DNA of 64,000 nt from an uncultured delta proteobacterium (lineage in GTDB: Bacteria > Myxococcota_A > Polyangia > Polyangiales > Polyangiaceae). A program made the translations under genes and the position numbers. Numbering within the stretch: the first letter of the stretch is position 1; every line of letters starts with the position of its first letter. Shown one piece after another: positions 11,601-64,000 of the stretch. The notes beneath the pieces were generated by a model. It had not been told where the DNA came from, did no database searches, and saw only the letters and a list, made by a program, of their open reading frames with translations. Location: the NCBI GenBank assembly GCA_963716725.1, contig CAVQUB010000005.1:704001-768000 (forward strand). Direction: 5' to 3'.

Positions 11601-12409
11601 AAGAGTGCGACAACGGTGCGGCCAACAACACCGGTGGCTACGGCAAGTGCAACCCGGACTGCAGCTCTGGGCCGCGCTGCGGCGACGGTGTCAAGAACGG
11701 CGCGGAGCAGTGCGACGACGGCAAGAACGACGGCAGCTACGGCGGTTGCAACCCCGGCTGCACGCTGGCCAACTACTGTGGCGACGGCCAGCTGACCAAC
11801 CCACCCGAGACCTGCGACCAAGGCGCCGCCAACAGCGCCACCGCCTACGGCAAGTCCCTCTGCACCAACGCCTGCAAGCCGTCGCCCTACTGCGGCGACA
11901 AGGCCGTCGACGCGGTCTTCGGCGAGACCTGCGACGACGGGGTGAACAGCGGCCAGGCGGGCTCGTGCACCACCGACTGCAAGGGCTTCGTGCCGCTGGT
12001 CAGCTGCGGCGATGGCGTGGTGCAAGCTCCCGAGCAATGCGACAAGGGCGCCCAGAACGGAACGCCCGCGAGCAACTGCGACACCCACTGCCACATCCGC
12101 TGCGGCAACGGCGTCAAAGAGAGCGGTGAGCAGTGCGACAACGGAGTCAACGACGGCAGCTACGGCACCTGCAACCCGGACTGCTCCCTGCCCGGGTATT
12201 GCGGTGACGGCATCAAGAACGGGACCGAAAAGTGCGACAACGGCGGTGCAAACGCCCCGGTAGGTTCGGCCTACGGCAGCGGAACCTGCACCCTGATCTG
12301 CCAGTGGGCCCCCTACTGTGGTGATGGCTACGTGCAGGCCGGCTTCGGAGAGCAGTGCGATGGCCAGGCCGGTTGCGGCCCGACCTGCAAGTGGACCAAC
12401 CCCAAGTGA
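8630..12409 (+). CDS. Large lipoprotein with Myxococcus Cys-rich repeats (DUF4215-like) and a central fibro-slime (PA14-like) domain
   Basis: Many CGDG...E.CDDGN...DGCS..C repeats; YRDF...HPDF, FFPVDG, HNFAFTSE, FTGDDDVYVFINGKLAVELGGVH, FQAERHT. ATG at 8630 follows GGAG. Confidence 0.9.
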   Translation: MLGFQFARRVSVLTLFVLVVGCGGNPEVASTDTGGTGGSTGGAGGAGGNGGSGGGIVLDAGPDADDGSAGDACIDCDAAPICGDGVIESPELCDDGNATPGDGCSGICAIEPGYSCPTAGQLCIPVQAVCGDGKISGAEACDDGNATAGDGCSGTCDVEQGYACQTPGQPCTPVQTAKCGDGAVNSGEQCDDGNTTPNDGCDGSCKLEQGYICPTPNQACVKNEYCGDSIVQPSKGETCDDGNGTPGDGCSGICALEPGHVCPNPGKPCVSIWVCGNGKVDPGETCDDGNTSPSDGCAADCTQVEPGYTCPATGGPCIKVPPNTCGDGIVAGLEQCDDGNTASSDGCSATCLAEPGFNCPTPGKLCVPIAVCGNGKLEAGEGCDDGNTLPGDGCGVACQIEPLYVCPTPGQLCVSTVKCGDSVVAGSEQCDDGNTTSLDGCGSTCKLEPGWICPNAGAKCVAKQCGDGIIAGLEQCDDNNTAASDGCSPTCKLEQGWACLTVGTKSVCHATTCGDAVKEGFEQCDDGGKIPYDGCSPYCKVEPACANGQCTPVCGDGLKFPQEACDDGNKSNGDGCSASCQIESGWTCNVEIEAPPPKLDIPILYRDFLYRGTSSPGAGHPDFQWNIAAATGLVKAALGVDGKPVFNSSTGSGSTQLITDATSLCWWYHDTGCSGAGSTNPYSKLVYTTNGLPNGPPTLLTLNQGTGNTYQFSSTAFFPVDGLGWGNAQTYNNHNFAFTSELRYQFTYQGGSTPEVFDFTGDDDVYVFINGKLAVELGGVHGATNGSVTLNAAQATALGLTVGGMYEIAVFQAERHTTQSNYKLTLSNFVHAKSVCKTFCGDGIVAGIEVCDDGTANNTGGYGKCKPDCSRGPFCGDAAVQNPPETCDDGSNAVTYGGSSKQCGPGCGFAAYCGDAVVSNGEQCDDGTANNTGAYNKCGPGCTLGPRCGDGALQAGNGEQCDEGANNGATSSKCTSACQLKCGNGVADPGEECDNGAANNTGGYGKCNPDCSSGPRCGDGVKNGAEQCDDGKNDGSYGGCNPGCTLANYCGDGQLTNPPETCDQGAANSATAYGKSLCTNACKPSPYCGDKAVDAVFGETCDDGVNSGQAGSCTTDCKGFVPLVSCGDGVVQAPEQCDKGAQNGTPASNCDTHCHIRCGNGVKESGEQCDNGVNDGSYGTCNPDCSLPGYCGDGIKNGTEKCDNGGANAPVGSAYGSGTCTLICQWAPYCGDGYVQAGFGEQCDGQAGCGPTCKWTNPK

Positions 12410-29891: not shown

Positions 29892-32086
29892 GCCGCGGCA
29901 GCCTTCTGCTTTCGCTGAGCCTCGCTGGGCTGGGCCTCGCGACGACGTTGCCGGCTTGGGCGACCAAGGTGCGCCGACCCTTCGCCGAGGCCAAGACCTT
30001 TGGCTACGGTTTCGACAACAACGGCTCAGCTGGCGGCTGTACCGATCACGAATGCGGCGGCCGCTGCTACGACGGTCACGGGGGCACGGACTACCCGGTG
30101 GTCGTGGGCACCCAAGTGCTGGCCGGGGCCGATGGCAGCGTCGTGGCGACCAACAACGGCTGCGCCAACACCGGCGGCCTGGGCAACACCTGCGGTGGCG
30201 GCTGCGGCAACTACGTGAAGATCGCGCACGCCGACGGCCACTTCACCCTGTTTTGCCACCTGCAGCTGGGCTCCCTGAAGGTGGCGACCGGTCAGGCGGT
30301 GAAGTGCGGTCAAGCGGTGGGCAACTCCGCGAGCTCGGGCAACTCCAGCGGCCCGCACCTGCACTTTGCCTGGCGCACCAGCGGCAACGCCAACATCAAC
30401 TCTTACAGCGGCAAGTGCTCCAGCTCTCTCAGCGCCTGGGTCGAACAGGGCAGCTACAACGGGCCGACCGGCGCCCAGTGTGAATGCGCGGCGGGAACCG
30501 AGACCTGCAACGGCAAGGACGACGACTGCGACGGCCAGGTGGACGAAGGCGACGTCTGCGAGATCCAGATGCTGCAGCGATCGCAGTTCTGGCTCGCGCC
30601 CGCGCGCACCACGGACATCGATGGAGACGGCCGGGCAGACGTGTGTGGCCGGGGAGGCGCAGGAGTCTGGTGTCACCTTTCGCAGGGCAGCAGCTGGTCC
30701 GACAAGGGACCCACCCTGGCACTCGCTGACAGCCAGGGCTGGGACGACGCGACGAACTGGGGCACCCTGCGCATGGGCGATCTGGACGGCGACGGCCGAG
30801 CCAATCTGTGCGCCCGCGCCAACGCCGGCGTGACTTGCTGGAAGTCGGACGGCGCCGGACTGAGCACGAAGATCGAAGGGCCCGCCTGGGCCGACGACAA
30901 GGGCTGGTCCGGCGTCCAGTTCTACAGCACCATGCGTTTGCTGGACGTCGACGGCGATCACAAGGACGACCTGTGCGCGCGCGCGGCCAAGGGCATCGTC
31001 TGCCTGAAGTCCACGGGCAGCGCCTTCGGTGAGGCCTTCGACGGACCCGCCTGGTCCGACGACGCCGGCTTCGGCGCCGCACGCTACTACGCCACCCTAC
31101 GGACCGGCGACGTCAACGGCGACGGGATGCAGGATCTCTGCATCCGCACCAAGGACGGCATGGAGTGTCGGCTGTCCGAGGGCACGGGCTTCGGCGACGC
31201 CGTGGCCGGCCCCGCCTGGAGCGACGACAACGGCTGGGGCGCCATGAAGTACTGGAGCACCATTCGCCTGGTCGACGTCGACGGCGACGGTCGCGCGGAT
31301 CTGTGTGCGCGGGACTCCAAGGCCTTGCGCTGTCACCTGTCGACGGGCACGTCGTTTGGCGAGGCCATCGAAGTGGCGCCGCTGGGAGACGACACGGGGT
31401 GGGACGACGAGTCGAACTACCTCACGCTGCGCAGCGGTGACATCGACGGCGACGGAGCCCAGGATCTGTGCCTGCGAGCCGACGCCAAGGTGCTGTGCTT
31501 TCGGCTGAAGGCCGGCGTCTTCGAGAAGGTGGAGGGGCCCGCCTGGTCCGACGAGAGCGGCTGGAACAAGCCCGAGTACTTCCACACCATCCAGCTGGGG
31601 GACATGAACGGCGACGCCAAGGCGGATCTGTGTGCTCGTCACTCGGGGGGATCGATGTGCCTGCCTTCCACCGGTGATGGCTTCGGAGCGCCGGTGCAGC
31701 TGGATGAGTTCACGGACCAAGGCGGCTGGGCCGCCGAGCGCTATTACGCGACCATCGCGATTGGCGGCCCGGTCTGTGTGCCCCAGGACGAGATCTGTAA
31801 CGGCAAGGACGACGACTGCGACGGCCAGATCGACGACGGCGTGTGCACCATCGACGCCAGCCCCTCCACCGGAGGCAGCGGCGCCATGGATGCCGGCCTG
31901 CCCACGGGAGGCAGCGGTGGGAGCAGCTCCGGGACCGATCCCGGCAAGGAGAACGCGGAAGGCTCCTGCAGCTGTCGCGCTGTTGGCGGTCGAGACAAAC
32001 CGTCCGGGATCGCCGGCGGGGTCCTGGCCTTCGTCGCCCTCGCCCTGGGTCGGAGCTCGCGAACGCGACGACGACGCCCGAGCTGA
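29888..32086 (+). CDS. M23 peptidase with FG-GAP/VCBS repeats and a MYXO-CTERM-like tail
   Basis: HGGTD and GPHLHF M23 motifs; seven D(I/V)DGDG.ADLC.R repeats; SCSC...hydrophobic...RRRR C-terminus. Confidence 0.9.
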   Translation: MSRGSLLLSLSLAGLGLATTLPAWATKVRRPFAEAKTFGYGFDNNGSAGGCTDHECGGRCYDGHGGTDYPVVVGTQVLAGADGSVVATNNGCANTGGLGNTCGGGCGNYVKIAHADGHFTLFCHLQLGSLKVATGQAVKCGQAVGNSASSGNSSGPHLHFAWRTSGNANINSYSGKCSSSLSAWVEQGSYNGPTGAQCECAAGTETCNGKDDDCDGQVDEGDVCEIQMLQRSQFWLAPARTTDIDGDGRADVCGRGGAGVWCHLSQGSSWSDKGPTLALADSQGWDDATNWGTLRMGDLDGDGRANLCARANAGVTCWKSDGAGLSTKIEGPAWADDKGWSGVQFYSTMRLLDVDGDHKDDLCARAAKGIVCLKSTGSAFGEAFDGPAWSDDAGFGAARYYATLRTGDVNGDGMQDLCIRTKDGMECRLSEGTGFGDAVAGPAWSDDNGWGAMKYWSTIRLVDVDGDGRADLCARDSKALRCHLSTGTSFGEAIEVAPLGDDTGWDDESNYLTLRSGDIDGDGAQDLCLRADAKVLCFRLKAGVFEKVEGPAWSDESGWNKPEYFHTIQLGDMNGDAKADLCARHSGGSMCLPSTGDGFGAPVQLDEFTDQGGWAAERYYATIAIGGPVCVPQDEICNGKDDDCDGQIDDGVCTIDASPSTGGSGAMDAGLPTGGSGGSSSGTDPGKENAEGSCSCRAVGGRDKPSGIAGGVLAFVALALGRSSRTRRRRPS

Positions 32087-50223: not shown

Positions 50224-52383
50224 CTACTTGCTGATCTTCGTGAGCCCCGTCCCGGTCAAGACAACGCTGGTGAACGGCGAGAGGTCGAAGGAGCCGGTCA
50301 CCGGTTGGCCATCGACGCGCGTTGCCACTGCGCCGTTCAGGTAAAAGGTTTTGTTGAACATCGTGGTGTTGTAGAAGAGCGCTTCGCTCTCTCCGGCTCC
50401 CAGCGCAGACAAGTCACAGCTGGATGTGGCGTCCTGTCCCGTCTGCGACTTCCAGCCGGCGAAACTGTAGTTCGTCACGTCGAGCCTGAAGATGTCGGCG
50501 CTCTTGTAGTGAGCGACGTACGTGTTGCCGTTGATGGTGATGGGGCCACCGCTTCGCGAGACCAGGCGGGCGGTCTGGGAGTCACCGATGTCACGGGCCA
50601 GAGCGTAGATGAGGTTCTTACTGATTGAGGTTCCGCCCAGATCGCCGTTGATGAGCAGCCCGCTCTTCGTGTTGAAGACCGTGTTGTTGGTCACGGTCTC
50701 GTTGTAGCTGTCGTGCAGGTAGATGCCGTTGGCCGTGCAGTTCGCGACGGTGTTGTGATCGACGGTGACACCGCCAGCGCTCGTGTCGAGGTAGATGCCC
50801 TCGCCATAGGGGATATTCCATTTCGACCATCCCGCCAGGGTCCCAGTGACGCCGTCCACGATGTTGTGTCTGATGATGGAGCCATTGGTGGCGGCGCCCG
50901 GATATGCCGCAGACGAGGACGTGTAGATGCCGCCGCCGTCGTCCTTGGTCAGGCAAGCGTTGTTGATGAAGTTGTACTGGACCACGTTCCTTTGGGCGAA
51001 CTGGATCCCGTTGTATCCGCTGTCGATCACCCGGTTGTGCTCGATCGTGTTGTCGTTCCCTTCGACATAGACGCCGGAGCCGGAGAACCAGTACTTGCCG
51101 ACCCCTGTGATCCCCAGGTTGTCGAACCTGCAGGTGTCGCTGACCCGGTTCCCGGAGTATGCGGAGTTCTTCGTGAAAGCGTAGATTCCGAAGTGATTGG
51201 AGCCTGACACGGTGTTGTCAGACACGGAGATCTCCGAGCCATAAGTGAGGTAGATGCCCATCGAATCGAAATCCGAAATGATGTTGTTGGCGACGATGTT
51301 GTTCGTTCCGCTGAGCTTGAGCCCCTCCTTCGATCCCTCCAGGAGGTGAAGGTCGCGGATCGTGACGTAGTTCCTGTCGCTCACGGACACGCCGTTGTCG
51401 TGCACCGAGCCCCTCACCGTATGGGCCACAGGCGAATCGCCAGCAGGGAGCCAGAGGTAGATGGTGCTCGTGCCGGGGTCGAAGTACCACTCGCCCGCCG
51501 CGTCGAGAAGCTCGAGCTTGTTGGTGAGGATGAAGCCTTCGTCGACGTTCAGGCTGGAGTAGGGGGCGGAGGGCAGGGTGATGGTCTTGCCGGTGGACGA
51601 GGCGACCTTCACCGAGACGGTCGCATAGGCCGTGGTCCGGCCGGTCCATGTCGCTCCGGTGTAGTCGATTCCGGCGTCTAGCCCGGCGGAGGTGAATGAC
51701 GTGGACGAATTGACCGCGCTGATGGCAGCGTAGCCCGTGTTGGGGAACCTCGCGGATCGCGCTCGCGTCCCGTCGATGAACAGCTGGGTCACCTCGGCCC
51801 CAGCCGTCGCCTTGTAGATGTTGCCCGCGTGGGGGGTCCAGCCTGTGATGACCTTCGACCCGTAGATCTTGGGGCGCAGTCCGGAGCCATACGCGCCGAT
51901 AGTGATGGGATTATTTGCAGAGCCCGAGGCCCCGACCACGACGCTGCCTTCCCATTTTCCGCCGCACTCGAAGGCCACGATGTTTCCGGGCTTCAGGCTC
52001 GCGGCGTTCACCTTGTCGATGGTCGCCCAGGCGGCTGCGGCTGTGAGCCCGTCGTTTCCGTCATTGCCCGACGGACTGACGAAATAAGTGGGCGCGTAGG
52101 TGGGCGTGATCTGATCGGTCGCAGCGGCATCGGGGCCCCCGCCGTCGCTCGGAGCGGCATCGGGGCCACCGCCGTCGCTTGGAGCGGCATCGGGGCCCCC
52201 GCCGTCGCTTGGAGCGGCATCGGGGCCCCCGCCGTCGCCCGGAGCGGCATCGCCCTGGGTGGCGGCGTCGTCTGGCGCGGTGGAGTCACACGCTAGATGG
52301 GCGAGGCTGCCAAGGAGGGCCAGGGCGAAGAGCAACGGCTGGGCCGCGATTCTGGGTGCCCGTAATTTTGCGAGGAGTGCCAA
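50224..52383 (-). CDS. Right-handed parallel beta-helix lipoprotein (putative polysaccharide-active)
   Basis: YFVSPSGND.NDG, ARFPN, GEWYFD, DGGGIY, repeated N..I..N strands. Confidence 0.85.
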   Translation of the reverse strand: MALLAKLRAPRIAAQPLLFALALLGSLAHLACDSTAPDDAATQGDAAPGDGGGPDAAPSDGGGPDAAPSDGGGPDAAPSDGGGPDAAATDQITPTYAPTYFVSPSGNDGNDGLTAAAAWATIDKVNAASLKPGNIVAFECGGKWEGSVVVGASGSANNPITIGAYGSGLRPKIYGSKVITGWTPHAGNIYKATAGAEVTQLFIDGTRARSARFPNTGYAAISAVNSSTSFTSAGLDAGIDYTGATWTGRTTAYATVSVKVASSTGKTITLPSAPYSSLNVDEGFILTNKLELLDAAGEWYFDPGTSTIYLWLPAGDSPVAHTVRGSVHDNGVSVSDRNYVTIRDLHLLEGSKEGLKLSGTNNIVANNIISDFDSMGIYLTYGSEISVSDNTVSGSNHFGIYAFTKNSAYSGNRVSDTCRFDNLGITGVGKYWFSGSGVYVEGNDNTIEHNRVIDSGYNGIQFAQRNVVQYNFINNACLTKDDGGGIYTSSSAAYPGAATNGSIIRHNIVDGVTGTLAGWSKWNIPYGEGIYLDTSAGGVTVDHNTVANCTANGIYLHDSYNETVTNNTVFNTKSGLLINGDLGGTSISKNLIYALARDIGDSQTARLVSRSGGPITINGNTYVAHYKSADIFRLDVTNYSFAGWKSQTGQDATSSCDLSALGAGESEALFYNTTMFNKTFYLNGAVATRVDGQPVTGSFDLSPFTSVVLTGTGLTKISK
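52122..52252 (-). repeat. Intragenic 30-bp tandem repeat encoding DAAPSDGGGP (about four copies)
   Basis: Directly visible. Confidence 0.85.
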
Positions 52384-53753: not shown

Positions 53754-54836
53754 ATGACCGGACGGTTTTGGGTCTCAGCGTTGGTGCTTTCCCTCCTCGG
53801 CTGCTCGAAGAGCCCATCCTCAGAGCAGCAAGCCAAGCCGGAGGGCTCATTGCCGGCGAAGTCCGCAAGCGCCCCCACCGGGTCCACCACGGCCCCGCAG
53901 GCCCCCGCGACCCTCGCGTCGGCGGCGCCGTCAGCCTCAGCTGCGCCGCGCTTCACGTACCCGATTGAGTTTTGCGGTAAGAAGCATGGCGAGGACACGA
54001 CCCGCGTCTACTGCGAAACCTCCGAAGTCGTGGACGGGATCAAGGACCTCGGTCCGCTCGCCGGCCTCAAGAAGCTGAGAGTACTGATCATCCTCCCGGG
54101 TCCTGCGGGTACGCCAGCCGATGATCTCTCGCCTCTCAGGGAACTCACGGAACTCAGAGAAGTCGTCCTCGCGGACATGAGGGTGAAGAGCATTGAGCCG
54201 CTGGCTGGACTCACCAAGCTGGAGACGCTCTCCCTCGGGAACAGCGGAATGCGCGACCTCACGCCGCTGGCCAAGCTCACCCGGCTTCGGAAACTCGATC
54301 TTTCCTGGGCTCGAGAAGTGAGCGATCTGACACCACTCTCGGGCATGACAGAACTCCGAGAGTTTCGGGGAGTCCCGGTCAGCGATCTGAGTCAACTGGA
54401 GCCCCTGCAGAAGCTGGAGATCCTCGATATCGGAAGCTCGAAAGTGACCGACCTGACTCCGCTGCAGAAGCTGCCCGCACTGCGCGAACTCAACCTGAAC
54501 AACTGCGAGAAGCTTGCAGATGCCTCTCCTCTGTCGAAGCTGAGCAAGCTGACGCGCCTCGATCTGGGCCGTACGAAAGTGACCGACCTAGCTCCCTTGG
54601 CGAGCCTCAGCGATCTCACATACCTCCGGCTCGCCAACTGCAAGCTGGCGGACATCTCCCCGCTCGCCAACCTTGGCAAGCTGGAGTTCCTGGACATAGG
54701 CGACACCGGTCTCATGGATGTGGCGCCGATCTTCGGCCTTGCGAAGCTGAAGACCGTCCAGCTCTACGGCACCCGCGTGCCGGAGCCGCAGCGGGCGGAA
54801 CTCAAGACCAAGCTGCCTGGATTGACCGTCCGGTAG
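53754..54836 (+). CDS. Internalin-like leucine-rich-repeat lipoprotein
   Basis: LLGC lipobox; repeated D(L/I).PL..L..L..L.L units. Confidence 0.9.
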   Translation: MTGRFWVSALVLSLLGCSKSPSSEQQAKPEGSLPAKSASAPTGSTTAPQAPATLASAAPSASAAPRFTYPIEFCGKKHGEDTTRVYCETSEVVDGIKDLGPLAGLKKLRVLIILPGPAGTPADDLSPLRELTELREVVLADMRVKSIEPLAGLTKLETLSLGNSGMRDLTPLAKLTRLRKLDLSWAREVSDLTPLSGMTELREFRGVPVSDLSQLEPLQKLEILDIGSSKVTDLTPLQKLPALRELNLNNCEKLADASPLSKLSKLTRLDLGRTKVTDLAPLASLSDLTYLRLANCKLADISPLANLGKLEFLDIGDTGLMDVAPIFGLAKLKTVQLYGTRVPEPQRAELKTKLPGLTVR

Positions 54837-54839
54837 CGA

Positions 54840-54870
54840 GCGCGCGCGGGCGGAGGGGACGCGTTGTGCC
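54840..54870 (+). repeat. Intergenic repeat, 3' end of module B
   Basis: GCGCGCGGGCGGAGGGGACGCGTTGTGCC matches the ends of the copies at 56706, 57738 and 63420. Confidence 0.75.
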
Positions 54871-54946
54871 GGGGCTGGCGGCCACGCGTGCACCCAGGCT
54901 CGCGGCAGTCGTGGCTCAACCTCGCAGGAGGCGCTATGGTCTCACC

Positions 54947-55159
54947 GTGACGATCATCGATTGGAACGGAACGGACGTCCCCGAAGCCCTTCGCCATCTG
55001 CCTGCAGGACGGTACGCGATGGAACCACTCGACGAGGCCCTCGAGCTGAGCGCGGACGAGGAAGAGGGTCTGGTGAAGGCACTGCAGTCCCTCCGCGAGG
55101 GCCGCGGTGTTCCCCACGATCACGCCTGCGCATTGTTGCGCCGGCGTGACGCACGGTGA
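54947..55159 (+). CDS. Small acidic protein, putative antitoxin-like
   Basis: ELSADEEEGL..AL.SL..GRGVP resembles addiction-module antitoxin components; GGAGG upstream. Confidence 0.5.
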   Translation: MTIIDWNGTDVPEALRHLPAGRYAMEPLDEALELSADEEEGLVKALQSLREGRGVPHDHACALLRRRDAR

Positions 55160-55497
55160 GCAGCTTCAGCTCGACGCCGCGGGTGAACTGCGCGCCGCCC
55201 GGTTTCTTCCGGACCAGGCCCGGGGTCGCGCAATGGCAGGCGGTCGCGGCGTCCGCGGCCGCGAAGAACGGTCGCGTCCACCATCGCGTGCGGCAGTGCC
55301 TCGCGGGCGGCTCGACCTGCGTCGCGAGCACCACGGCGGCGGTGCCGGCGTACGTAGTGCTCGACCTGCCGCCGGGAGGGTGCAACAGCGAGCAGTGCAC
55401 CGCTTCGCAGCGGCGGAGCGGCTCGACCTGGCCTTGGCTGGCCGCCGGTCTCGCGCTCGCGAGCGCGCTCTTCCGGAGAGGCCGGAGGCGCGCGTGA
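55156..55497 (+). pseudogene. C-terminal fragment of a surface protein with a MYXO-CTERM-like tail
   Basis: GGC...C...WLAAGLALASALFRRGRRRA; no signal peptide. Confidence 0.45.
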
Positions 55498-56441
55498 GGC
55501 TCTTCGCGGTGCTGCTGCTCGCACTGGTCGCGGCGTGCGGCGGGCAGACCGCGGAGGATCGCCCGCGCTCCCCCTGGCCCGAGAGCGGCTGCCCGCCCAG
55601 CCACGAGCTGCGCGACGGCCGCTGCACGATGCGCGAGATCCACGTGCCGGGTGGAGGCTTCATGATGGGCCGAGGCTTCTGTCCGAAGTCGGGATCCGAA
55701 AAGACGCCGCCGGACCTCGAGTGCCCGTTCGCTGACCAGCCGCACTGGGTCGAGGTCGCTCCGTTCTGGGTGGACGTGACGCTGTTCACCTACGCGGACT
55801 ACGGCAAGCTCGGCTTGCCCTACGACGACGCCGCGGACTGTCCGAACCGCGAGATCGAGTGCGCCGCGCCGCTGGCGTATATGCCGGCCGATGGCGGCCT
55901 TGGCGGCCTTCTCGGTAGCCCCCCAGGGAATCTGTCCGACACAGACCTGGCATGTTCCCAACACGGAAAGCGAGCGATCCGCGAGGCTGAGTGGGAGTGG
56001 CTGGCCACCTGGGGCGGCACCCGAACCTATCCCTGGGGGGAGGCGGAGCCGACCTGCGAGCGCGGGCACATCGATTCATCGGAGTGTCGCCTGGTCAACC
56101 CGGTCGAGTGGTACACGGGCATGGACGTTCCGGTTTCGAAAGTGGCCTCCCACCTGCCCACCCCGGAGGGCGTGTACGATCTCACGGGCGGTGGCGGCGA
56201 ATGGGTGCTGCCTTCGCCCAGTGTGGTCTACACGGACGGATACCCGGAGCCGATGGCGAAGCTCCCCGCCTGCCCGAATGGGCAGAATAACTGCGGGTGG
56301 ATTTCAGGCGGCTGGGTCGCCGGACTGCGCGGAGGAGCAACCGACAGCCCCGCGCGCCACTTCGGAGGTGCATATCGAGGCGCGAACCGGAGCCCCCGCA
56401 AACTCCCAACCGGCTTCCGCTGCGTACGCCCCGCGCTCTGA
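55494..56441 (+). CDS. FGE-sulfatase (SUMF1-like) domain lipoprotein
   Basis: VAAC lipobox; GGFMMG, EAEWE, YPWG, GVYDLTG..EW, GFRC. Confidence 0.85.
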   Translation: MRLFAVLLLALVAACGGQTAEDRPRSPWPESGCPPSHELRDGRCTMREIHVPGGGFMMGRGFCPKSGSEKTPPDLECPFADQPHWVEVAPFWVDVTLFTYADYGKLGLPYDDAADCPNREIECAAPLAYMPADGGLGGLLGSPPGNLSDTDLACSQHGKRAIREAEWEWLATWGGTRTYPWGEAEPTCERGHIDSSECRLVNPVEWYTGMDVPVSKVASHLPTPEGVYDLTGGGGEWVLPSPSVVYTDGYPEPMAKLPACPNGQNNCGWISGGWVAGLRGGATDSPARHFGGAYRGANRSPRKLPTGFRCVRPAL

Positions 56442-56477
56442 GCCGGCGTCGGGATCGGCTTGCCCGATCTACTTCGA

Positions 56478-56717
56478 CGCCTCGGTCTCCCCCCCCACCA
56501 TCACGATCCCGGTCGCTTCACCGGCTTCTCCAAACACAGCCGCGCCGCGGGCTTGAAACCTGCTCTCTGTCTTTGTGCCTCCCCTCGTCTCGCTTCGCTC
56601 GCCGGTCCCCTCCTTGCCCGGTGCGCGCGAGCGAAAGTGTCTTGCCGAGATCACGGGCGCAGTGCCGATGCTCGCGCGCACGCGGACGGAGGGGACGCGT
56701 TGTTCCGTGCCCGACGC
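56478..56717 (+). repeat. Intergenic repeat, modules A+B
   Basis: 56508-56706 aligns with 57541-57738; 56478-56555 aligns with 59462-59538. Confidence 0.9.
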
Positions 56718-56778
56718 TCTGTCGAGCTCCGGCGCTCGCCCGGTGGACTTGCCATGCGACCGCGCCTATCGTCCCGTC

Positions 56779-57474
56779 ATGTGGGTACGCTCTAGAAACA
56801 TCTTCGCGTTCTGTGCGGCCGGTGTTGTGGCGTGCACCGCTGCGGATCGTCCCATCGTTGCTGGGCCCGCAACCACGGGTGCGCCGTCGCCGGACGCTGC
56901 GCCCCCGACTCCCAGCAGGGATACCGCCGACGCCGGCGGGATCCCTGCCCCATCGCCGGGGATTGCTCTGGCCGACTTTCCGCGCGCGGTCGCCGGATTT
57001 CCATTCGGCCAGACGGAGGCCCAATTCCGCGCCGCATGCGAAGCCGCCGGCGGTGGGGGCACTTCGTCCCCCGGCGAAGCGACATGCTCGAAGGCGCCCG
57101 TTCCCGTGGACTTGGACCTGGGGTTCAAGGTCCTCACCGTGACCGCGATCTTCTGCGGCGGCACGGTGTGTGAGATCGGGCTGGGCGGCGTCGCGGATCC
57201 CGAGACCGCCCGCAGGGCGGCATCGCGGCTGGAGGGGAAGTACGGCCGGCCTGGTGATCCCGGACCGAACGGGCAGTGCGACGTGGACTGGCAGGACGCG
57301 CGGTTCCGGCGGATGTGGATATGGCCGGGGACTCAGCGCAAAGTCGAGGGCGCGTTGCTTCTCGTGTATTCGTGCTTGGACTCCCTGGTCCCGACCTTGC
57401 ACGTCTTCTACCAGAACGAACGGGCCGTGGAGCGTCGGCGGGGCGACATGTCGGAACGCCAGCGAAACTGGTAG
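56779..57474 (+). CDS. Hypothetical lipoprotein
   Basis: VVAC lipobox, Pro-rich linker, paired Cys; flanked by direct repeats. Confidence 0.7.
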   Translation: MWVRSRNIFAFCAAGVVACTAADRPIVAGPATTGAPSPDAAPPTPSRDTADAGGIPAPSPGIALADFPRAVAGFPFGQTEAQFRAACEAAGGGGTSSPGEATCSKAPVPVDLDLGFKVLTVTAIFCGGTVCEIGLGGVADPETARRAASRLEGKYGRPGDPGPNGQCDVDWQDARFRRMWIWPGTQRKVEGALLLVYSCLDSLVPTLHVFYQNERAVERRRGDMSERQRNW

Positions 57475-57540
57475 CGCAAAGTCGTCCGTGCCAACGCACG
57501 GCGCCTGGGCGTAAGGGTCCTCGTTCCGCCGCCCTACCCC

Positions 57541-57860
57541 CCCGGCCGCTTCACAGCCTTCTCCAAGCACAATCTCGCCGCGGGCTTGAAGCCGGCCCGC
57601 TGTCTTTGTGCCTCCCCTCATCTCGCTTCGCTCGCCGTCCCCTCCTTGCCCGGCGCGCGCGAGCGAAAGTGTCTTGCCGAGATCACGGGCGCAGTGCCGA
57701 TGCTCGCGCGCACGCGGACGGAGGGGACGCGTTGTTCCAGACGGGAGCGCAACTCGTGAGTTGTCGATATCGATCGCGGCACCTGGGACAGAGCCGGGCA
57801 CCCTGCGCGGTTGCGCGAGTTCGGCGCTGATCAAGGTGCGGCGGTTCTCGCTGATCGCTT
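57541..57860 (+). repeat. Intergenic repeat, complete A+B+C copy
   Basis: A+B matches 56508-56706; C (57745-57860) matches 59546-59661 with 14 differences in 116 nt by manual count. Confidence 0.9.
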
Positions 57861-58230
57861 ACACCAAGCGAACAGGACGTTGAGTGCAACGGTGTGACTC
57901 GCCTTCAGTTCGGTACCGAATTCCCGCGACAGTCCCAGCGCCGGCAAGCGATCCCTGAACCCCCTCGATCCCGCCTCGCTGAGCGGCTGAATTTCTTCCG
58001 TTCGCGATCGGCGCTCAACGAGAGCTGAAACCAGTCGGTTGGGGAACAAGGACGTTCCCTCTCGCCCCCGCCAGTGGCCAGCGACCCTTTCGCTGCCGCC
58101 GACCCCGGCCGAGCCGCTGCGAGCAGGACCACGAGACCGGTCACAGTGCTTTGCCAGGGGTCTGCACCATCGCCCGAGTCGGGGAGGTCACCATCGTCCG
58201 ACGCAATCCTCGCCGAACAGCGCGCGAACA

Positions 58231-59040
58231 CTACATCCCAGCGCTTCTCATCTCACGGTCGGCGTCATCCAGGGACTTTTGAGCGTTACCACACATGCGC
58301 TCGGTGGGTTCAACGCATGCCGACGTGCAGATTCGGACCAAGTAGGCGCCACTCCTCAATGCGCTGACCCCTGGGATTGTGAGCGCCATCTTGTCGAGCT
58401 CACTCCGAATCGGGTCGACTTTCTGCCACTCCGAACGCGCGAGTTCCATACACTCGACTGTGTGGCTGTAGTCTTCGCTCCACTTCGCGAAGCGTGCTCG
58501 GGCGACGATCTGGCGAAGGTCGCCGAGGAGCACCCTCGCGCGCTTGCGTGCGGCACCCTCGTGCACATCGCGGATCTTTTTCAACTCCGCCCGTTCAGCT
58601 GACGAATCGGCAGCGCTGGTGAGGACTTCAACTGCATCGTCGTCACAAATGCCGCTGGAAAAACATTCGCTGCGGAGGCGGTCTCGGCGCTGTTCGCGTG
58701 ACATTGTTCGTGCTGACTCGAGAGTGAGCGCCGGAGGTTCCGGCGGCTCGGCCGGCGTTGAATTCACCGGTGAAGATGCGAACCCGCTCCGGCTGCGCGC
58801 GATGCGAACCCCGAGGCCGGCAACCTCCGGACGCCGATCTGATTCACAAGACTGCGACGCCCGCGTCAACGCCGTGTCGGCTTCCTCAAATTTCCCAGAA
58901 GCGGCTGCCAAGTGCCCGGCGTTCAGACTTCGTTGGCACTCGTTTTCAGCGGTCCTGCCCGATGAATAGACGATGGCGGCGGCCACGAACAGCGCCCCCA
59001 GGGCGATGCCCACGCCCACCCAGATGCCAAGTCGGTCCAC
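58231..59040 (-). CDS. Membrane-anchored hypothetical protein
   Basis: N-terminal transmembrane segment, helical Cys-containing body; GTG start inferred. Confidence 0.6.
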   Translation of the reverse strand: MDRLGIWVGVGIALGALFVAAAIVYSSGRTAENECQRSLNAGHLAAASGKFEEADTALTRASQSCESDRRPEVAGLGVRIARSRSGFASSPVNSTPAEPPEPPALTLESARTMSREQRRDRLRSECFSSGICDDDAVEVLTSAADSSAERAELKKIRDVHEGAARKRARVLLGDLRQIVARARFAKWSEDYSHTVECMELARSEWQKVDPIRSELDKMALTIPGVSALRSGAYLVRICTSACVEPTERMCGNAQKSLDDADREMRSAGM

Positions 59041-59461
59041 GACAATTCTCCTCCCAGAACCTCTGCAATCATACAGCAGGATCGGAGGACCTCGGACGCG
59101 GGCACTCGCGGAAAGAAAACGCGGCCCGAATGGGGCGCGACACCGCAAAAAGGCGTCGCAACTCCCTCCGCCGCGGGGACGGCAGCCGGGCGTGCCCCGC
59201 TCGGGTCCGCCCAACGTCGGAGGCAAGCCAAACCGAGGCGTTTGGGCAAGGCCAGGCGCGTGGGGCGCGGGGGAAGAAGTCGACAGATCACGTGTCGTGC
59301 GCCGTGCCTGACCCGCGACGGACCACGCAGGCTTGCTGGACCTCGGCCGCGCATCCGCAACCGGCGTGCCTGCGCTCTACGCCTAGGACTATGGCAACTC
59401 CGCGTGTGCACTGGGGTGGCGAAGCCACCTTCGCCGGTGGTGATCGCCGCTCCGGTCGCGG

Positions 59462-59661
59462 CGCCTCGGTCCGTCTCGCCAAGCGTACGACACCGGCGGC
59501 CTCACCGGCTGCTCCAGACACAACCGCGCGGCGGGCTTCGGTGCTGAGCGCAACCCCTGTGTCATCGATGTCGATTGCGGCACCTGGCACAGAGCCGGGC
59601 ATCTTGCGCGGTTGCGCGAGCTCGACGCTGATCAAGGTGCGGCGGTTCTCGCTAATAGCTT
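59462..59661 (+). repeat. Intergenic repeat, modules A+C without B
   Basis: A-like 59462-59538 is joined almost directly to C-like 59546-59661. Confidence 0.85.
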
Positions 59662-59704
59662 CCAGTGTCCGGCAGGAAGCAGATCTGCCATACTTAGAAG
59701 CGCG

Positions 59705-60664
59705 ATGGCGCGTTCGGATCTTCTCCTCAATCTCGTCCGAGCAGGGTCCCTTGGGGACCAGGTCGGCTTTCGGCGCACGGTCGAGGCGCTGATCGCAGAG
59801 GAGCGAGAACGCCAGCATCACGTCGTCGCGGACCGGCTCGTGGAGTACCTTGCGAACAAGGGCAATGGTGCGCGTGGCCCGTCCGCAGATGCGCCCGTCG
59901 GCTCCTACGACGAACGGCATCCGGAGCGCGTCCTGGCCGACCTCGTTCTTCCCGAAACCGTCTCCAACGCGTGCACGGAGCTTGTCGAGGAACAACAGCG
60001 TGCGGACCTGCTTCGGTCGCATGCGATCGAGCCTCGCCACCGGATCCTTCTTGCGGGTCCCCCCGGCAACGGGAAGACGTCTCTCGCGGAGGCGCTGGCT
60101 GGCGAGCTCGCGTTGCCCTTGCTCGTCGTTCGCTACGACGGCGTGATCGGGAGCTTTCTCGGGGAGACTGCCGTTCGGTTGGCGCGTCTCATGGAGCACG
60201 TTCGGTCTCGTCGCTGCGTCGTCTTCTTCGACGAGTTCGACGCGATTGGGAAAGAGCGTGGAGACGAGCACGAGACGGGGGAGATCAAGCGCGTGGTGAG
60301 CTCGCTTCTGCTCAACATCGACGCACTCCCCTCGTACGTCGTCGTGGTGACGGCCACCAATCATCCCGAACTCCTCGACCGCGCGGTGTGGCGTCGGTTC
60401 CAGCTTCGCTTGGAGCTCCCGCCGCCGAACCGAGAGGCCATTGCCGAGTGGCTCCGAAGGTTCGAACAGCGAAGTGCCCTAAAGTTGGGGCTCACGGCAA
60501 AGCAAATCGACGAGCATCTCACCCGCCTCAGTTTCGCGGAGCTCGAGGAGTTCTGCACCGACGTTCTTCGACGCCTCGTGCTGCAGGGCGCGAAGCGCGA
60601 CGCGAAGTCCGTGGTGGCATCGCGCCTGTCGCAGCTGTCGGCTCGGTTTCAGGTTCGGAAGTAG
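59705..60664 (+). CDS. ietA: AAA+ ATPase of an IetAS-type system
   Basis: GPPGNGKT, FFDEFD, GEIKRVV, ATNHPELLDRAVWRRF; directly upstream of an S8 protease. Confidence 0.88.
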   Translation: MARSDLLLNLVRAGSLGDQVGFRRTVEALIAEERERQHHVVADRLVEYLANKGNGARGPSADAPVGSYDERHPERVLADLVLPETVSNACTELVEEQQRADLLRSHAIEPRHRILLAGPPGNGKTSLAEALAGELALPLLVVRYDGVIGSFLGETAVRLARLMEHVRSRRCVVFFDEFDAIGKERGDEHETGEIKRVVSSLLLNIDALPSYVVVVTATNHPELLDRAVWRRFQLRLELPPPNREAIAEWLRRFEQRSALKLGLTAKQIDEHLTRLSFAELEEFCTDVLRRLVLQGAKRDAKSVVASRLSQLSARFQVRK

Positions 60665-60667
60665 GAG

Positions 60668-63226
60668 ATGCCGTCGCCGTCGCGACCGCTTCTCATTTCG
60701 CCGCCGGGGTCGAGGCAAGCCTTCACTCCGCAACCGCCGCGGGGCGGCGGACCAAGCAATCCAAAGAAGGCGCGGCAGGTCGAGCTCCTTGCGCCGAAGT
60801 TCACTGAGCTGCAGCAGGCGCTCGCCGCACGTCGGGGTGCGCTTCGGGGCGACGCAGCAGGGGTGGCTCTCGAGCAGGTGCTGGTGTTCGAGACGAACGG
60901 TCCCGTGAAAGACCTTTGCGACACGGTTGCGAAGACGCCCGGTCTCGAATGGATGGCCGACGAGGACGTCCGCGACCTCGCGCCCGACGAGGACTTCTTC
61001 GTCGCAGACAAACCTGACAAGCTGGTCAACGCGCAGCTCTACCTCGTGCTCTTCAACCAACAGGCGGTGGAGCAGCTGTTGTCCCTTTGGCGCTTGTGGA
61101 GCACCAATGCTCGGCTGCCGGAGGAGCACCGCGGCTGGCTCGACGTCTTCCGACGGTTGCGCGACATCCGGCGCTGGGGCGTTCGCGATCGCCTCGAGGA
61201 GACCGGCGTCCTCGCCTACTGGCGCGATCGTGTCGAAGCCGGCTTCGAGACCGTCGGTGTCGAGATCGACCTCTGGTTTCGGCAGACCGAGCAGCGGTCG
61301 ATGGCGGAGGGGCGCATTCGCGATTTCGTCACGCGCGCGAACGGCCAGGTCCTGGCGAGCTGCAGGATCGACGAGATCGCGTACCACTCGCTCGTGTGCA
61401 AGCTCCCAATCGCGGCGGTCCAGGGCATGCTCGACAACCCCGAGGTCGAGCTTCTGCAGTGTGACGAGGTTCGTCTTGTTCGTCCCATTGGACAGGTCGG
61501 CGCCCCCATCGTCGCGGACGAGCCGGAGCAAGAGGAAGAAGCCGGTGGAGGCCAGGAAAGCGAGCTCAGCGATCCTCTCGTCGCACTCCTGGATGGCCTG
61601 CCGCTAGAGAACCACCGACGGCTTGCCGGCCGCCTCGTGGTCGACGACCCAGACGAATGGGCTGAGACCTACCCCGTGGCGAGCCGCTGTCACGGCACGG
61701 CGATGGCGTCGCTGATCCTGCACGGCGACCTGGGCGCGAGCGAGGAGCCCGCGCGCCAACGTCTTTACGTTCGGCCGATCCTGCGCCCGGACAGCTTTGG
61801 CGGACGATCGGAGCAAGCGCCCGAGGATCGCTCTTGGGTCGATCTGATCCATCGAGCGGTTCGCCGCGTGGTTGCGGGTGACGGGAACCTGCCCCCAGCC
61901 GCGCCGTCGGTGCGCGTGATCAGTCTGTCGGTCGGGGATCCATACCAGCCGTTCATCCGATCGATGAGCCCGCTCGCGAAACTGCTGGATTGGCTCTCGT
62001 GGCGGTATCGCGTCCTGTTCATCGTCAGTGCCGGAAATCATCGGGCGCCGATCATCGTTTCCGGACGCGCGGACGACGTGAAGCCTGAGACGATCGTCGC
62101 GGCTGTTGCCGGCGGGAAGCGACACCGTCGAATTTTGTCGCCGGCGGAGGCGGTGAATGCTCTCTCGGTCGGCGCGACCGCAGAGGACGCTAGCGGGACG
62201 TGGAAGCCCCGCGCTTCGAACGAACACGACCTTGCGCTGCCCGACGGACTCCCGAGTCCGATCAGCGGCCTGGGCCGCGGATATCGACGCGCCGTGAAGC
62301 CCGATGTTCTCGCGCCGGGCGGACGTGTCGTGTTCCTCGCCGGTGACGGCGCGAACGGCGAAACCCGGTTCGAGCTTGCCGAGCCGCGCCCACGTATCCC
62401 GCCCGGCCACCGGGTCGCCGCCCCGAGCGCAACGCAGGGCGACCTGTCCGGTGTTCGGTACTCGGCCGGAACCAGCAACGCGGCGGCGTTGGTCAGTCGA
62501 GCGGCGCTCCGCATCGCCGACGCACTACGAGACCTCGGCGAACAACCGAATGCGGCGCAGCTCGAACGAGTACCGATGGCGCTATGGCTGCGAACGCTCC
62601 TGGCCCACAGCGCGAGCTGGTCATCCGAAGCAAGCAAGCTGGCGGAGCGCGCCCTCCGAACGGAGAGCAACAAGCACACGTTCACCGACGAGGTGTCGGC
62701 GCTCCTCGGGTTCGGTACGATTCGTCCCGAGCGCGTGGTCACTTGCACGGAGGAGCGCGCCACCATCCTCGTAGGCGGCGACATCGCTGCGGACGAGCGA
62801 TACGTGCATCGCGTCCCGCTGCCACCGTCATTGAACGCGCACACGGCGTGGCGACGCCTCACCGTAACCCTGAGCTGGTTCTCACCCATCAACCCGACGC
62901 ATCGGAAGTATCGTCGCGCCGCCCTGTGGTTTGAGGCTCCCGGCCAGCGGGAATTGTTGGTGCAGCGTCGCGGTGTCGACTGGCAGGCCGTGAGGCGGGG
63001 GACGCTGCAGCATGAGGTCCTCGAGGGAGCCCGCGGAGCCATCAACATCCAAGCCGATGGCCATCTGGAGATCCCCGTGACGTGTCTCGCTGAAGCGGGC
63101 TTGCTCGACGAACGCCTCCCGTACGCGATGGCCGTTACGCTGGAGGTCGCTCCCGGCGTGAACACGAAGATCTACGACGAGGTTCGCGCACGCATTGCGC
63201 CGCGCGTGTCGGTCCGTCGCGCGTAG
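60668..63226 (+). CDS. ietS: S8 subtilisin-like peptidase of an IetAS-type system
   Basis: LLDG, HGTAMASL, SAGN and GTSNAA catalytic motifs; no signal peptide. Confidence 0.88.
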   Translation: MPSPSRPLLISPPGSRQAFTPQPPRGGGPSNPKKARQVELLAPKFTELQQALAARRGALRGDAAGVALEQVLVFETNGPVKDLCDTVAKTPGLEWMADEDVRDLAPDEDFFVADKPDKLVNAQLYLVLFNQQAVEQLLSLWRLWSTNARLPEEHRGWLDVFRRLRDIRRWGVRDRLEETGVLAYWRDRVEAGFETVGVEIDLWFRQTEQRSMAEGRIRDFVTRANGQVLASCRIDEIAYHSLVCKLPIAAVQGMLDNPEVELLQCDEVRLVRPIGQVGAPIVADEPEQEEEAGGGQESELSDPLVALLDGLPLENHRRLAGRLVVDDPDEWAETYPVASRCHGTAMASLILHGDLGASEEPARQRLYVRPILRPDSFGGRSEQAPEDRSWVDLIHRAVRRVVAGDGNLPPAAPSVRVISLSVGDPYQPFIRSMSPLAKLLDWLSWRYRVLFIVSAGNHRAPIIVSGRADDVKPETIVAAVAGGKRHRRILSPAEAVNALSVGATAEDASGTWKPRASNEHDLALPDGLPSPISGLGRGYRRAVKPDVLAPGGRVVFLAGDGANGETRFELAEPRPRIPPGHRVAAPSATQGDLSGVRYSAGTSNAAALVSRAALRIADALRDLGEQPNAAQLERVPMALWLRTLLAHSASWSSEASKLAERALRTESNKHTFTDEVSALLGFGTIRPERVVTCTEERATILVGGDIAADERYVHRVPLPPSLNAHTAWRRLTVTLSWFSPINPTHRKYRRAALWFEAPGQRELLVQRRGVDWQAVRRGTLQHEVLEGARGAINIQADGHLEIPVTCLAEAGLLDERLPYAMAVTLEVAPGVNTKIYDEVRARIAPRVSVRRA

Positions 63227-63259
63227 GAGCGTCCAGCTGCCAAGACCGACCGAAGCTCA

Positions 63260-63320
63260 GGGCACGCGCCGCGGTTCGAGGTGCGTGATCAATGTGAGGC
63301 GGTTCTCGCTGATCGCTTCC
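63260..63320 (+). repeat. Intergenic repeat, partial module C
   Basis: TGATCAATGTGAGGCGGTTCTCGCTGATCGCTTCC matches the C 3' end. Confidence 0.8.
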
Positions 63321-63365
63321 GGATGTGCACAGTGGTCAGCGCCGACGGAACTGCACCAGGTGCCT

Positions 63366-63431
63366 CGCGGGCGCCTTGCCGAATCTCGCGCCCGCGCGGG
63401 CGGAGGGGACGCGTTGCTCCGCGCCCGATGC
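63366..63431 (+). repeat. Intergenic repeat, 3' half of module B
   Basis: Aligns without gaps to about 56652-56717, including GGAGGGGACGCGTTG. Confidence 0.8.
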
Positions 63432-64000
63432 ATGCTCGTTCCCGATGGCATGCCGCTGTGTCGTCCGCGACCGCGCTCGCTTCCACGACCGCCTCGTGAG
63501 CTTCCGAGCACACGGCTGCCGCCAGCGCCGCGGCCGGGCCCCGCCCAAGCGGCGCACGAGGCGCGCCAAGCACTTTGGTTTCACCGATGGGTGTCTCGAC
63601 GCCGCGGCGCACGCGCGTCGCAAGCGCCACGCAGCCCCCCCAATGTTGGTCAGCTTGGCGCTCGGCGCTGCCGCGGCCGAGGCAGCCGTGCTCATCGGGC
63701 GAGCCATCGCGCGTCTTCGGCGGCCTGCGGGCACTCGACTCCAGTCTTGACCGATGTCATATTGTTCGGGAGTTTTGCGGAGTACATTGATCGGACAATG
63801 AGGTCCACCGACAGTGCCGGGCGTGCCCCCCCCCCATCCTCTATGGCCCGGAATACGGCGGGAATGGCGGGAATGCAGGACCACAAGGATGGCTGATCCG
63901 GGTTGGGTACGACACCTACAACCTCGGCTCGGTCGTACCTTAGGGCGCGGCCATCGCGTCGAGAGGTGCGGCATGGCAGATGACCTGGGCCATCGCAGGG

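Follow-up and report, generated by a model that had tools for sequence, protein, structure and literature searches.

How does an island of unrelated genes come to carry pieces of the same repeats in the gaps between its genes, all on one strand? The question is raised by the right-hand end of the window, a 64,000-nucleotide (nt) stretch of a Polyangiaceae genome (contig C5, positions 704001-768000, of G000, which is 84% complete). The sequence-only reading of this DNA had described five repeat pieces built from three modules, A, B and C, and had proposed either a gene-capture array with A+B+C as its recombination site or the scars of serial integration at one hotspot. The five pieces are all present, on the plus strand and close to where that reading had placed them, and a profile of B finds no further B in the window, in line with its remark that it had noticed no other copy there. 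The modules do not make up one repeat family: A is the coding end of a host gene, B is the end of an element and C is a local passenger, and the idea of A+B+C as a recombination site was not borne out. The island consists of DNA units stacked behind the 3' end of a GNAT gene and is a decayed example of a widespread one-ended architecture for gene capture. We propose that each unit starts at B, a predicted intrastrand triplex, and that a DUF559 nuclease may have made the cuts.

Module A repeats the final 22 codons of a GNAT gene situated just past the window end. The intact gene is on the minus strand at C5:771378-771866 (L001:15378-15866), and A1-A3 have their parent in its 3' 69 nt (C5:771378-771446; L001:15378-15446), which make up an intact fourth A 3.4 kb beyond the window. 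On the same strand, A1 (56501..56569) is an orphan copy of the last 22 codons and the stop, with the translation QRAGFKPAARLCLEKPVKRPGS, and A2 (57534..57602) is a second orphan tail, reading QRAGFKPAARLCLEKAVKRPGG before its stop; the two translations are near-identical 22-residue tails with one change each. A3 (59471..59538, minus strand) is decayed and shortened; it has lost its B, and C comes almost immediately after it. Over 80 nt this third A (59459-59538) is 75% like A1. A2 differs from the intact gene at 12 nucleotides, 10 of them at third codon positions, and since the A copies differ mostly at synonymous sites, they are likely to have come from other strains. The gene has been fused at several places, 69 and 396 nt from its end: in G005 the orthologue of the GNAT gene is joined to a B at the nucleotide used here, and in G002 the fusion is 396 nt from the gene end.

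Between A1 and the following B1 lies a 6-nt spacer, TCTTTG (56570..56575, plus strand), where the intact gene has GAAGAA. B1 itself (56576..56696, plus strand) comprises an initial TG, motif 1 (56578-56585), a small hairpin, motif 2 (56606-56613), a long hairpin and motif 3 (56688-56695). The second junction has the same layout, with a spacer at 57603-57608 followed by B2, which extends to 57728 on the plus strand and has its three motifs at 57611-57618, 57638-57645 and 57720-57727; the two A+B segments (56508-56706 and 57541-57738) share 93% identity over 199 nt. The two intact units begin at the fixed point 6 nt before B, and three units end with a copy of the GNAT tail. Read along the contig, the order of the island is B', cargo, A1 joined to B1, cargo, A2 joined to B2, C, cargo, A3 (B lost), C, IetAS, oriIS, B'', cargo, A4 and GNAT.

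The same junction recurs across genomes. We surveyed 207 B starts from 12 genomes, covering the whole of G000 and only fetched stretches of the others; these stretches were selected by matches to B or DUF559 and are thus a non-random sample, and genes were called with a custom dicodon model. In named public records, B-bearing loci belong to Polyangiaceae or Myxococcales in seven of nine cases and to Phycisphaerales in two; B is also present in genome G004. An uninterrupted homologue of the left flank was found for 143 of the 207 B starts, in 96 cases to the right on the same stretch. The usual geometry is A joined to B, then cargo, A' and the rest of the gene, with the intact gene mostly to the right of B. 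Identity between copy and parent is 0.77-0.96 at positions -16 to -7 before the TG of B and 0.25-0.34 at -6 to -1 (n=142), and the alignment ends exactly at -6 in 82/143 cases and at 0 in 7/143. At the 78 distinct target sites the first displaced base is a purine in 62 (p 1.5e-5) and the second is A or T in 56 (p 9e-5), both against a codon-phase background; in G002, G003 and G005 the same target nucleotide is used by different B subtypes and spacers. The gene's 3' end points toward B in 43 of 51 parent sites in called genes, and 27 of those 43 sites are at a codon boundary. Targets include hemB-, purC-, ArsA-, adenylate-cyclase- and RHS-like genes (named from their translations) and a transfer RNA (tRNA) gene.

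Mismatches in 40 copy-parent pairs fall on first, second and third codon positions in 134, 55 and 361 cases (361/550 third), with 344 synonymous and 120 non-synonymous codons. This excess at third positions indicates that the copies functioned as alleles in separate strains and did not arise as recent duplicates on the spot; a local duplication that then decayed neutrally is rejected by the same bias. The genomic distribution of B points in the same direction as two of the ideas in the sequence-only reading, serial integration at one hotspot and gene capture. Its suggestion that copies might cluster in arrays was confirmed by 46 B starts in 22 clusters in G000, where all 20 neighbour pairs within 10 kb are on the same strand (random mean 2.6 pairs), and cargo at the GNAT end is genome-specific, with other B units in G002 and G005 and none in G001, G003 and G004. 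The even scatter in both orientations and the identical cargo order in relatives that would have spoken against it were not found. C is local, with three copies, all at the island, in the DNA compared; B, with its 22 clusters, is not.

A fixed B end, a loose host end and insertion driven by homology are very probably the architecture of the system. The simplest geometry would be a unit made of B, cargo and A', with an A'-B junction, inserted by a crossover in A according to an ISCR1-like logic. A second conserved element end or oriIS was found neither at the left boundary of A' nor next to the displaced gene, and homology mostly stops near the stop codon. Guide pairing of the spacer or of the first 10 nt of B with the target was tried and rejected, with no covariation (best z 3.1 in 832 tests). 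In four genomes one and the same gene has a short B after its stop codon, and the DNA downstream differs between them (G000 C3:150559, G001 C235:52029, G002 C1:295490 and G005 C176:49779); a paralogue at G000 C2:243186 has no B. Orphan tails of one 538-aa (amino acid) gene occur on the same strand in G000 at C8:400407-423888 and C5:1-35805, so these two contigs may be adjacent and hold one island of ~60 kb.

The three covarying motifs of B combine a mirror and an inverted repeat, and this element end fits a class II purine-motif intrastrand triplex predicted on the minus strand. Motifs 2 and 3 form the stem, with compensatory changes in 8 of 32 predicted pairs; motif 1 mirrors motif 2, and all three motifs co-vary over five common subtypes. 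The mirror rule, counted with positions 3 and 6 free, is kept by 130 of 140 B (shuffle mean 35.5, maximum 52). A sequence-agnostic scan based on geometry only yields 38 sites in G000, against none in the reversed genome, and brings in more subtypes. When positions 1-7 were fixed in the triplet scan, the unconstrained eighth triplet was canonical (G.G-C, A.A-T or T.A-T) in 163/172 cases. A T in motif 2 at triplet positions 4-6 is mostly matched by an A in motif 1, a pattern that fits T.A-T triplets on the opposite strand and not a pyrimidine triplex on the strand of B. The pyrimidine arm, the complementary purine arm and the mirror third arm stand in class II order, and class II stems may hold both T-A-A and T-A-T triplets, such purine triplexes not being formed in RNA, according to the account in PMC4666352. 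Folding z-scores of single long copies are modest (-1.1 to -2.3), and triplex folding of B is predicted from motif covariation; as the B copies are kin, the case rests on about eight subtype switches. A 27-nt hairpin unit located between motif 1 and the small hairpin of B also occurs in frame inside IS91-like transposases (G001 C149:93026 and 98727; G005 C151:27793 and 30020; G000 C34:147770).

The most consistent neighbour gene of B encodes a DUF559 protein, in most cases on the same strand and ~200-550 nt downstream. In G000, seven of nine DUF559 genes have a same-strand B 350-530 nt upstream; the corresponding figure for fetched DNA is 37 of 66 matches, and among loci picked by DUF559 alone it is 7 of 20. 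DUF559 is the top family adjoining B both in the genus (9 genes in 4 genomes) and in other genera (8 genes in 5 genomes). Twenty-nine B-linked copies keep the D...ExDGxxH motif, and their single-base codon changes are synonymous in 446 cases and non-synonymous in 118; by this measure the B-linked DUF559 genes are under purifying selection. Each protein is a single domain of ~105 aa, a bare catalytic domain. Its model (predicted local distance difference test, pLDDT, 85) matches 3hrl, I-Bth0305I (3r3p, template modelling score, TM, 0.71) and Vsr, and a profile match to 3r3p has an E value of 1.7e-5, the protein being taken from relatives and not from the window. In metagenome contigs a triplex lies upstream in 8 of 66 DUF559 loci (shuffle 0.05). 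Two of these eight, on contigs of lower guanine-plus-cytosine content (L221 and L222), have DUF559 bracketed by an inverted pair of compact triplex motifs. Matches to DUF559 also occur among plasmid sequences. Apparent 3' ends of group II introns were seen in the hairpin or linker of B upstream of DUF559 at G002 C2:125809, C2:1272189, C3:827207 and C1:485727 and at G001 C132:16336.

The exact break at -6 together with the target preference suggests a dedicated cutter, and DUF559 is a candidate for that enzyme to which we give slightly less than an even chance. In the proposed sequence of events, the strand opposite B would fold, on single-stranded DNA, into a purine-motif triplex. DUF559, acting in trans in the case of the island, would cut 8 nt past the third strand and would also cut a loose host site (D-N/R-W on the strand of B, the slash marking the cut) in the first conserved gene to the right. 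The ends would then be joined into a circle of B, cargo and A', or the B end would be joined directly to the target within a RecA D-loop. On entering another strain, the unit would integrate by homology through A', leaving the gene whole and its old tail orphaned, and repeated rounds could stack cargo such as IetAS into an array. The whole explanation, in which triplex-ended units are joined by DUF559 and then inserted by host homologous recombination, is about as likely to fail as to hold, with a slight lean toward failure. We hold more tentatively that this is a mobile system free of transposase and integrase, in which a Vsr-fold nuclease would read the triplex end, cut at a measured distance and capture DNA up to the next conserved gene, whose end would serve as the homology arm and so allow insertion at any place with no harm to the gene.

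Several observations weigh against this explanation. A DUF559 gene is absent within 1.2 kb of 169 of the 207 B (38/207 have one) and the island has no DUF559 remnant, so that the nuclease would have to act in trans; 13 of the 20 loci picked by DUF559 have no B in the strict scan, three of them showing a one-mismatch B by eye. Next to compact BoxC in a viral collection, DUF559 was nearby in only 3 of 80 loci (2 contigs; control 1/400); the B pattern itself matched once in viral contigs. As a nuclease of ~100 aa shows no obvious ability to join ends, the model has to rely on host ligase and RecA. On the side of the junction, 64 of the 207 B have no parent in the DNA compared, parents were found for only 17 of 49 B in other genera and some of these are not true parents, and some B, including many in other genera, follow a stop codon or a G/A-rich microsatellite with no visible duplication. 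The 207 B starts include a few false or reverse-strand matches from the agnostic scan, and significance against shuffles is overstated because B copies within a lineage are kin. Within the genus, IS91-like ends are also linked to B. Finally, a stable triplex was found neither in duplex DNA nor by footprinting in vivo in the work of Holder et al., as described in PMC4666352.

The link to IS91-like ends lends itself to another explanation, which we consider unlikely: B would be the terIS-side end of rolling-circle elements of the IS91/ISCR type, the Y2 transposase making circles that homologous recombination rescues, on the pattern of ISCR1 complex integrons. The start of an IS91-like transposase lies at most 1.5 kb downstream on the strand of B in 12 of 93 B of the genus and never on the opposite strand; oriIS ends within 6 kb downstream of B number 15 on the same strand and 1 on the other; the target set read on the other strand includes GTTC, CTTC and GTAC, all found in the IS91 target table of PMC13181058; and the window itself holds an oriIS end and a leader remnant. 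The oriIS of the window, however, faces the opposite direction, the fixed end in ISCR is oriIS with B on the other side, and a simple insertion that has B on one side and oriIS abutting the displaced target was not found. In five other genera 0 of 49 B have a same-strand IS91-like transposase downstream (by queries of the genus type), and near-identical elements of G002 with a fixed oriIS either lack B and begin 80 nt ahead of the transposase or continue through B to ~150 nt beyond it. Given the missing link in other genera and these G002 elements, DUF559 is preferred to an IS91-like maker. Host functions could also suffice: the triplex would stall replication or mark incoming single-stranded DNA, a host nuclease would trim at a fixed distance and RecA would do the rest, DUF559 being a passenger or only a spreader of B. 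This would accommodate the many B, and the entire island, that lack DUF559, and triplex motifs are described in PMC4666352 as tied to local rearrangement in E. coli and as blocking polymerase in vitro. In 15 of 22 clusters it is the G-rich strand that carries B (p 0.07), a weak hint of a link to replication that does not establish a replication-strand bias, the skew being noisy in short stretches of relatives. The nucleotide-exact break with its target preference suggests a dedicated cutter instead, and DUF559 stays co-oriented, under purifying selection, beside B across genera; we regard the host-only account as improbable.

Site-specific recombination was considered in two forms. Coupling sequences, as in Tn916 and Tn554, offer a comparison for a 6-nt overlap, and B might be the attachment arm of tyrosine-recombinase elements that act in trans with a non-homologous 6-nt overlap. 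The spacer is always 6 nt and variable, the products at -6 (82) and 0 (7) of 143 are in keeping with this, and restoration of a gene's 3' end is typical of integrative elements. Against these points, the 78 targets have neither a shared core nor arm symmetry, the conserved feature of B is a single-strand fold, and an integrase is absent in or beside the island, which makes this form quite improbable. By hand comparison in seven genomes, one listed tyrosine-recombinase match is at most 2 kb away from a B; G000, which is 84% complete, yielded no serine recombinase. The sequence-only reading was right that no recombinase is in view, as genes for tyrosine and serine recombinases and for Y1 and Y2 transposases are absent in and beyond the island, and the recombinase or HUH enzyme that it suggested looking for past position 64000 was not found. 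The other form, its own, takes A+B+C as an integron-like site at which a recombinase shuffles cargo. The same-strand repeats do part unrelated cargo, and G000 has two integron integrases above the TIGR02249 cut-off, one of them 5.4 kb from a B cluster. Yet A is host coding sequence, the junction lies outside the hairpin, the intI genes are on C7 and C8 with none adjoining, and the repeats in the two integron arrays have no match in A, B or C. The surroundings of B1 and B2 contain no RYYYAAC and no GTTRRRY, in agreement with the earlier remark on missing attC R boxes, and the repeats, 70-200 nt long and 1-5 kb apart around genes, are indeed not CRISPR-like. The cassette model is very unlikely.

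We read module C and the IS91-like debris as passengers. C is present at 57745..57863 (plus strand), where it is partly like the oriIS-proximal stretch 63260-63318, and at 59546..59664 (plus strand), 87% like the former over 119 nt. The C' piece noted earlier at 63260 is present as claimed, and its description needs correction in that it overlaps an IS91-like oriIS end on the minus strand (63219..63320, the end proper at 63219-63281), which abuts the ietS stop. A decayed leader and start region of an IS91-like transposase (59325..59448, minus strand) is 75% like C34:85611-85734, and no coding remnant of the transposase was detected there. Clear recent one-ended transposition was observed in G002 at C2:67000-152000 (L089-L091, L140-L142), with at least nine near-identical IS91-like copies that have a fixed oriIS and variable left ends; the base after their conserved end has no target consensus. 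B was rejected as a terminator of local IS91-like elements, as G002 copies run through it. Elements with a tyrosine recombinase and Y2 in relatives (L103-L107, in G001, G003 and G004), in G003 inserted among attC-like repeats, were also rejected as B-linked, and they were not found in G000. A Y1 HUH gene was not found beside B; of two Y1 matches in G000 the nearer is ~19 kb from B. The integron integrases lie at C8:384000-395144 (L008) and C7:149800-158215 with toxin-antitoxin-rich cassette arrays, and at C34:145-160 kb similar 150-nt repeats occur without an integrase, resembling a cluster of attC sites lacking integron-integrases (CALIN), with short B copies interleaved.

The remaining features of the island are mostly cargo. 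At its left edge B' (54837..54871, plus strand) retains only the right half of B, a stem arm and motif 3, the junction end being lost, and it directly follows the stop of a leucine-rich repeat (LRR) lipoprotein gene (53754-54836). Homologues of this gene, 67-72% alike, are found at other positions in G002, G003 and G005; in G003 the homologue lies on the other side of the GNAT gene, ~13 kb away. The leftmost unit (54947..56441, plus strand) carries open reading frames (ORFs) of 70 and 104 aa, neither with a family match, and an FGE-sulfatase-domain lipoprotein (55494-56441); the 70-aa ORF has no similarity to one small ORF common in such islands, and the earlier label of an antitoxin-like ORF found no match in Pfam, NCBIfam or PADLOC. 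Next come a lipoprotein-like ORF (56779..57474, plus strand) and a membrane-anchored ORF (58231..59043, minus strand, start uncertain), both without a family match. The IetAS cargo named earlier, an anti-phage pair of IetA (AAA ATPase) and IetS (S8 peptidase) at 59705..63226 on the plus strand, was confirmed for both genes against PADLOC (E 1.9e-143 and 2.4e-295). B'' (63365..63624, plus strand) consists of the right half of B (63365-63431) and the linker that leads to DUF559 in other copies, and stops short of that gene. The last cargo block starts at 63814..64000 (plus strand) and continues beyond the window to the intact parent gene; past 64000 there are five cargo ORFs, then the GNAT gene, then, upstream of that gene, a benzoyl-CoA reductase operon.

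Other searches at the island gave no tRNA or transfer-messenger RNA, nothing above the Rfam cut-off (one chance match, 20 bits against a cut-off of 153) and 0 sigma-70 promoters; predicted terminators number 9 (shuffle mean 5.0). Contigs from four DNA runs span the region and show no repeat-to-repeat joint, rare circles being invisible in contigs. A 103-nt non-coding piece at 59186-59288 is 78% like C5:372488-372587. Elsewhere in the window, positions 8869-12360, 30728-31638 and 52085-52264 contain repeats within the coding sequence of large cysteine-rich surface proteins, as well as a 30-nt tandem repeat, all of which are ordinary for the group.

If the proposed mechanism is true, it would be a general means by which Polyangiaceae-like myxobacteria build accessory and defence islands, and would explain how islands without an integrase, some with anti-phage genes such as IetAS, accumulate at ordinary gene ends; the enzyme could be a compact structure-guided nuclease for DNA insertion. 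Parts of this behaviour are known from other systems. Integrative elements can restore a gene's 3' end, and displaced gene tails form direct repeats around tandem islands. B arrays likewise show a direct repeat that restores the target gene end, but they have neither an integrase nor a fixed att core, and break points vary within one gene. REP/RAYT systems comprise many enzyme-less folded repeats, a few copies tied to a nuclease gene, and a GTAG tag. The B system has a similar make-up of many enzyme-less folded repeats and few nuclease-linked copies, probably with recognition of a single strand, and differs in lacking a nearby Y1 enzyme and the GTAG tag, in its triplex fold and in its kilobases of cargo; REP/RAYT is named in PMC5714925. 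A literature search, mainly of open-access papers, found none that links DUF559 to triplex repeats or describes the junction of A, 6 nt and B.

Closer in enzymology are the EDxHD nucleases I-Bth0305I and Vsr, which share the fold and a related active-site motif and in which a cut followed by homologous recombination spreads the element, as outlined in PMC3239194 and PMC3424549. Unlike EDxHD homing endonucleases, the B-linked protein has no DNA-binding domain, the B system involves neither an intron nor an intein, it lacks a long specific target, and the target flank ends up duplicated. Closer in architecture are complex class 1 integrons with ISCR1, described in PMC7707992 as having one fixed and one loose end, capturing neighbouring DNA and re-entering by homology with direct repeats and tandem build-up. 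The fixed end of ISCR1 is the oriIS of a Y2 transposase, whereas B is no oriIS and is usually without a transposase, and the homology arm of the B system can be any chromosomal gene end (78 targets). Compared with IS91/ISCR, the island contains no Y2 transposase gene, such a gene being linked to 12 of 93 B in the genus and to none of the 49 in other genera, and the oriIS ends differ in sequence from B and do not lie against host DNA that has been duplicated or displaced. The loose target consensus of B overlaps the IS91 tetranucleotides given in PMC13181058 (CTTG, GTTC, GTCC and minor variants) and is much broader.

The nearest structural counterparts are the BoxC/PIT/TM triplex repeats, known since the 1990s and, in the account of PMC4666352, assigned neither a function nor an enzyme. 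A triplex motif with natural three-way covariation here marks a nucleotide-exact junction at 78 targets; if the mechanism holds, this long-unexplained class of repeats would gain a job in gene capture and a working mechanism, and the BoxC/PIT question would become a direct assay with a named protein, a substrate strand and a predicted cut site. The word 'duplication' is absent from the main text of PMC4666352. B and the BoxC/PIT/TMECO repeats, as described in that source, share the one-strand order of pyrimidine, purine and reverse-Hoogsteen arms, G/C-rich stems of 8-9 nt, mixed T-A-A and T-A-T triplets and an intergenic position at unstable loci. B does not fit the TMECO/BoxC consensus of 9-nt stems with loops of 3-6 and 3 nt (PMC4666352), its hairpin loops being 17-73 and 19-124 nt long, and it is set apart by a fixed TG start and by a 6-nt spacer fused to duplicated host sequence.

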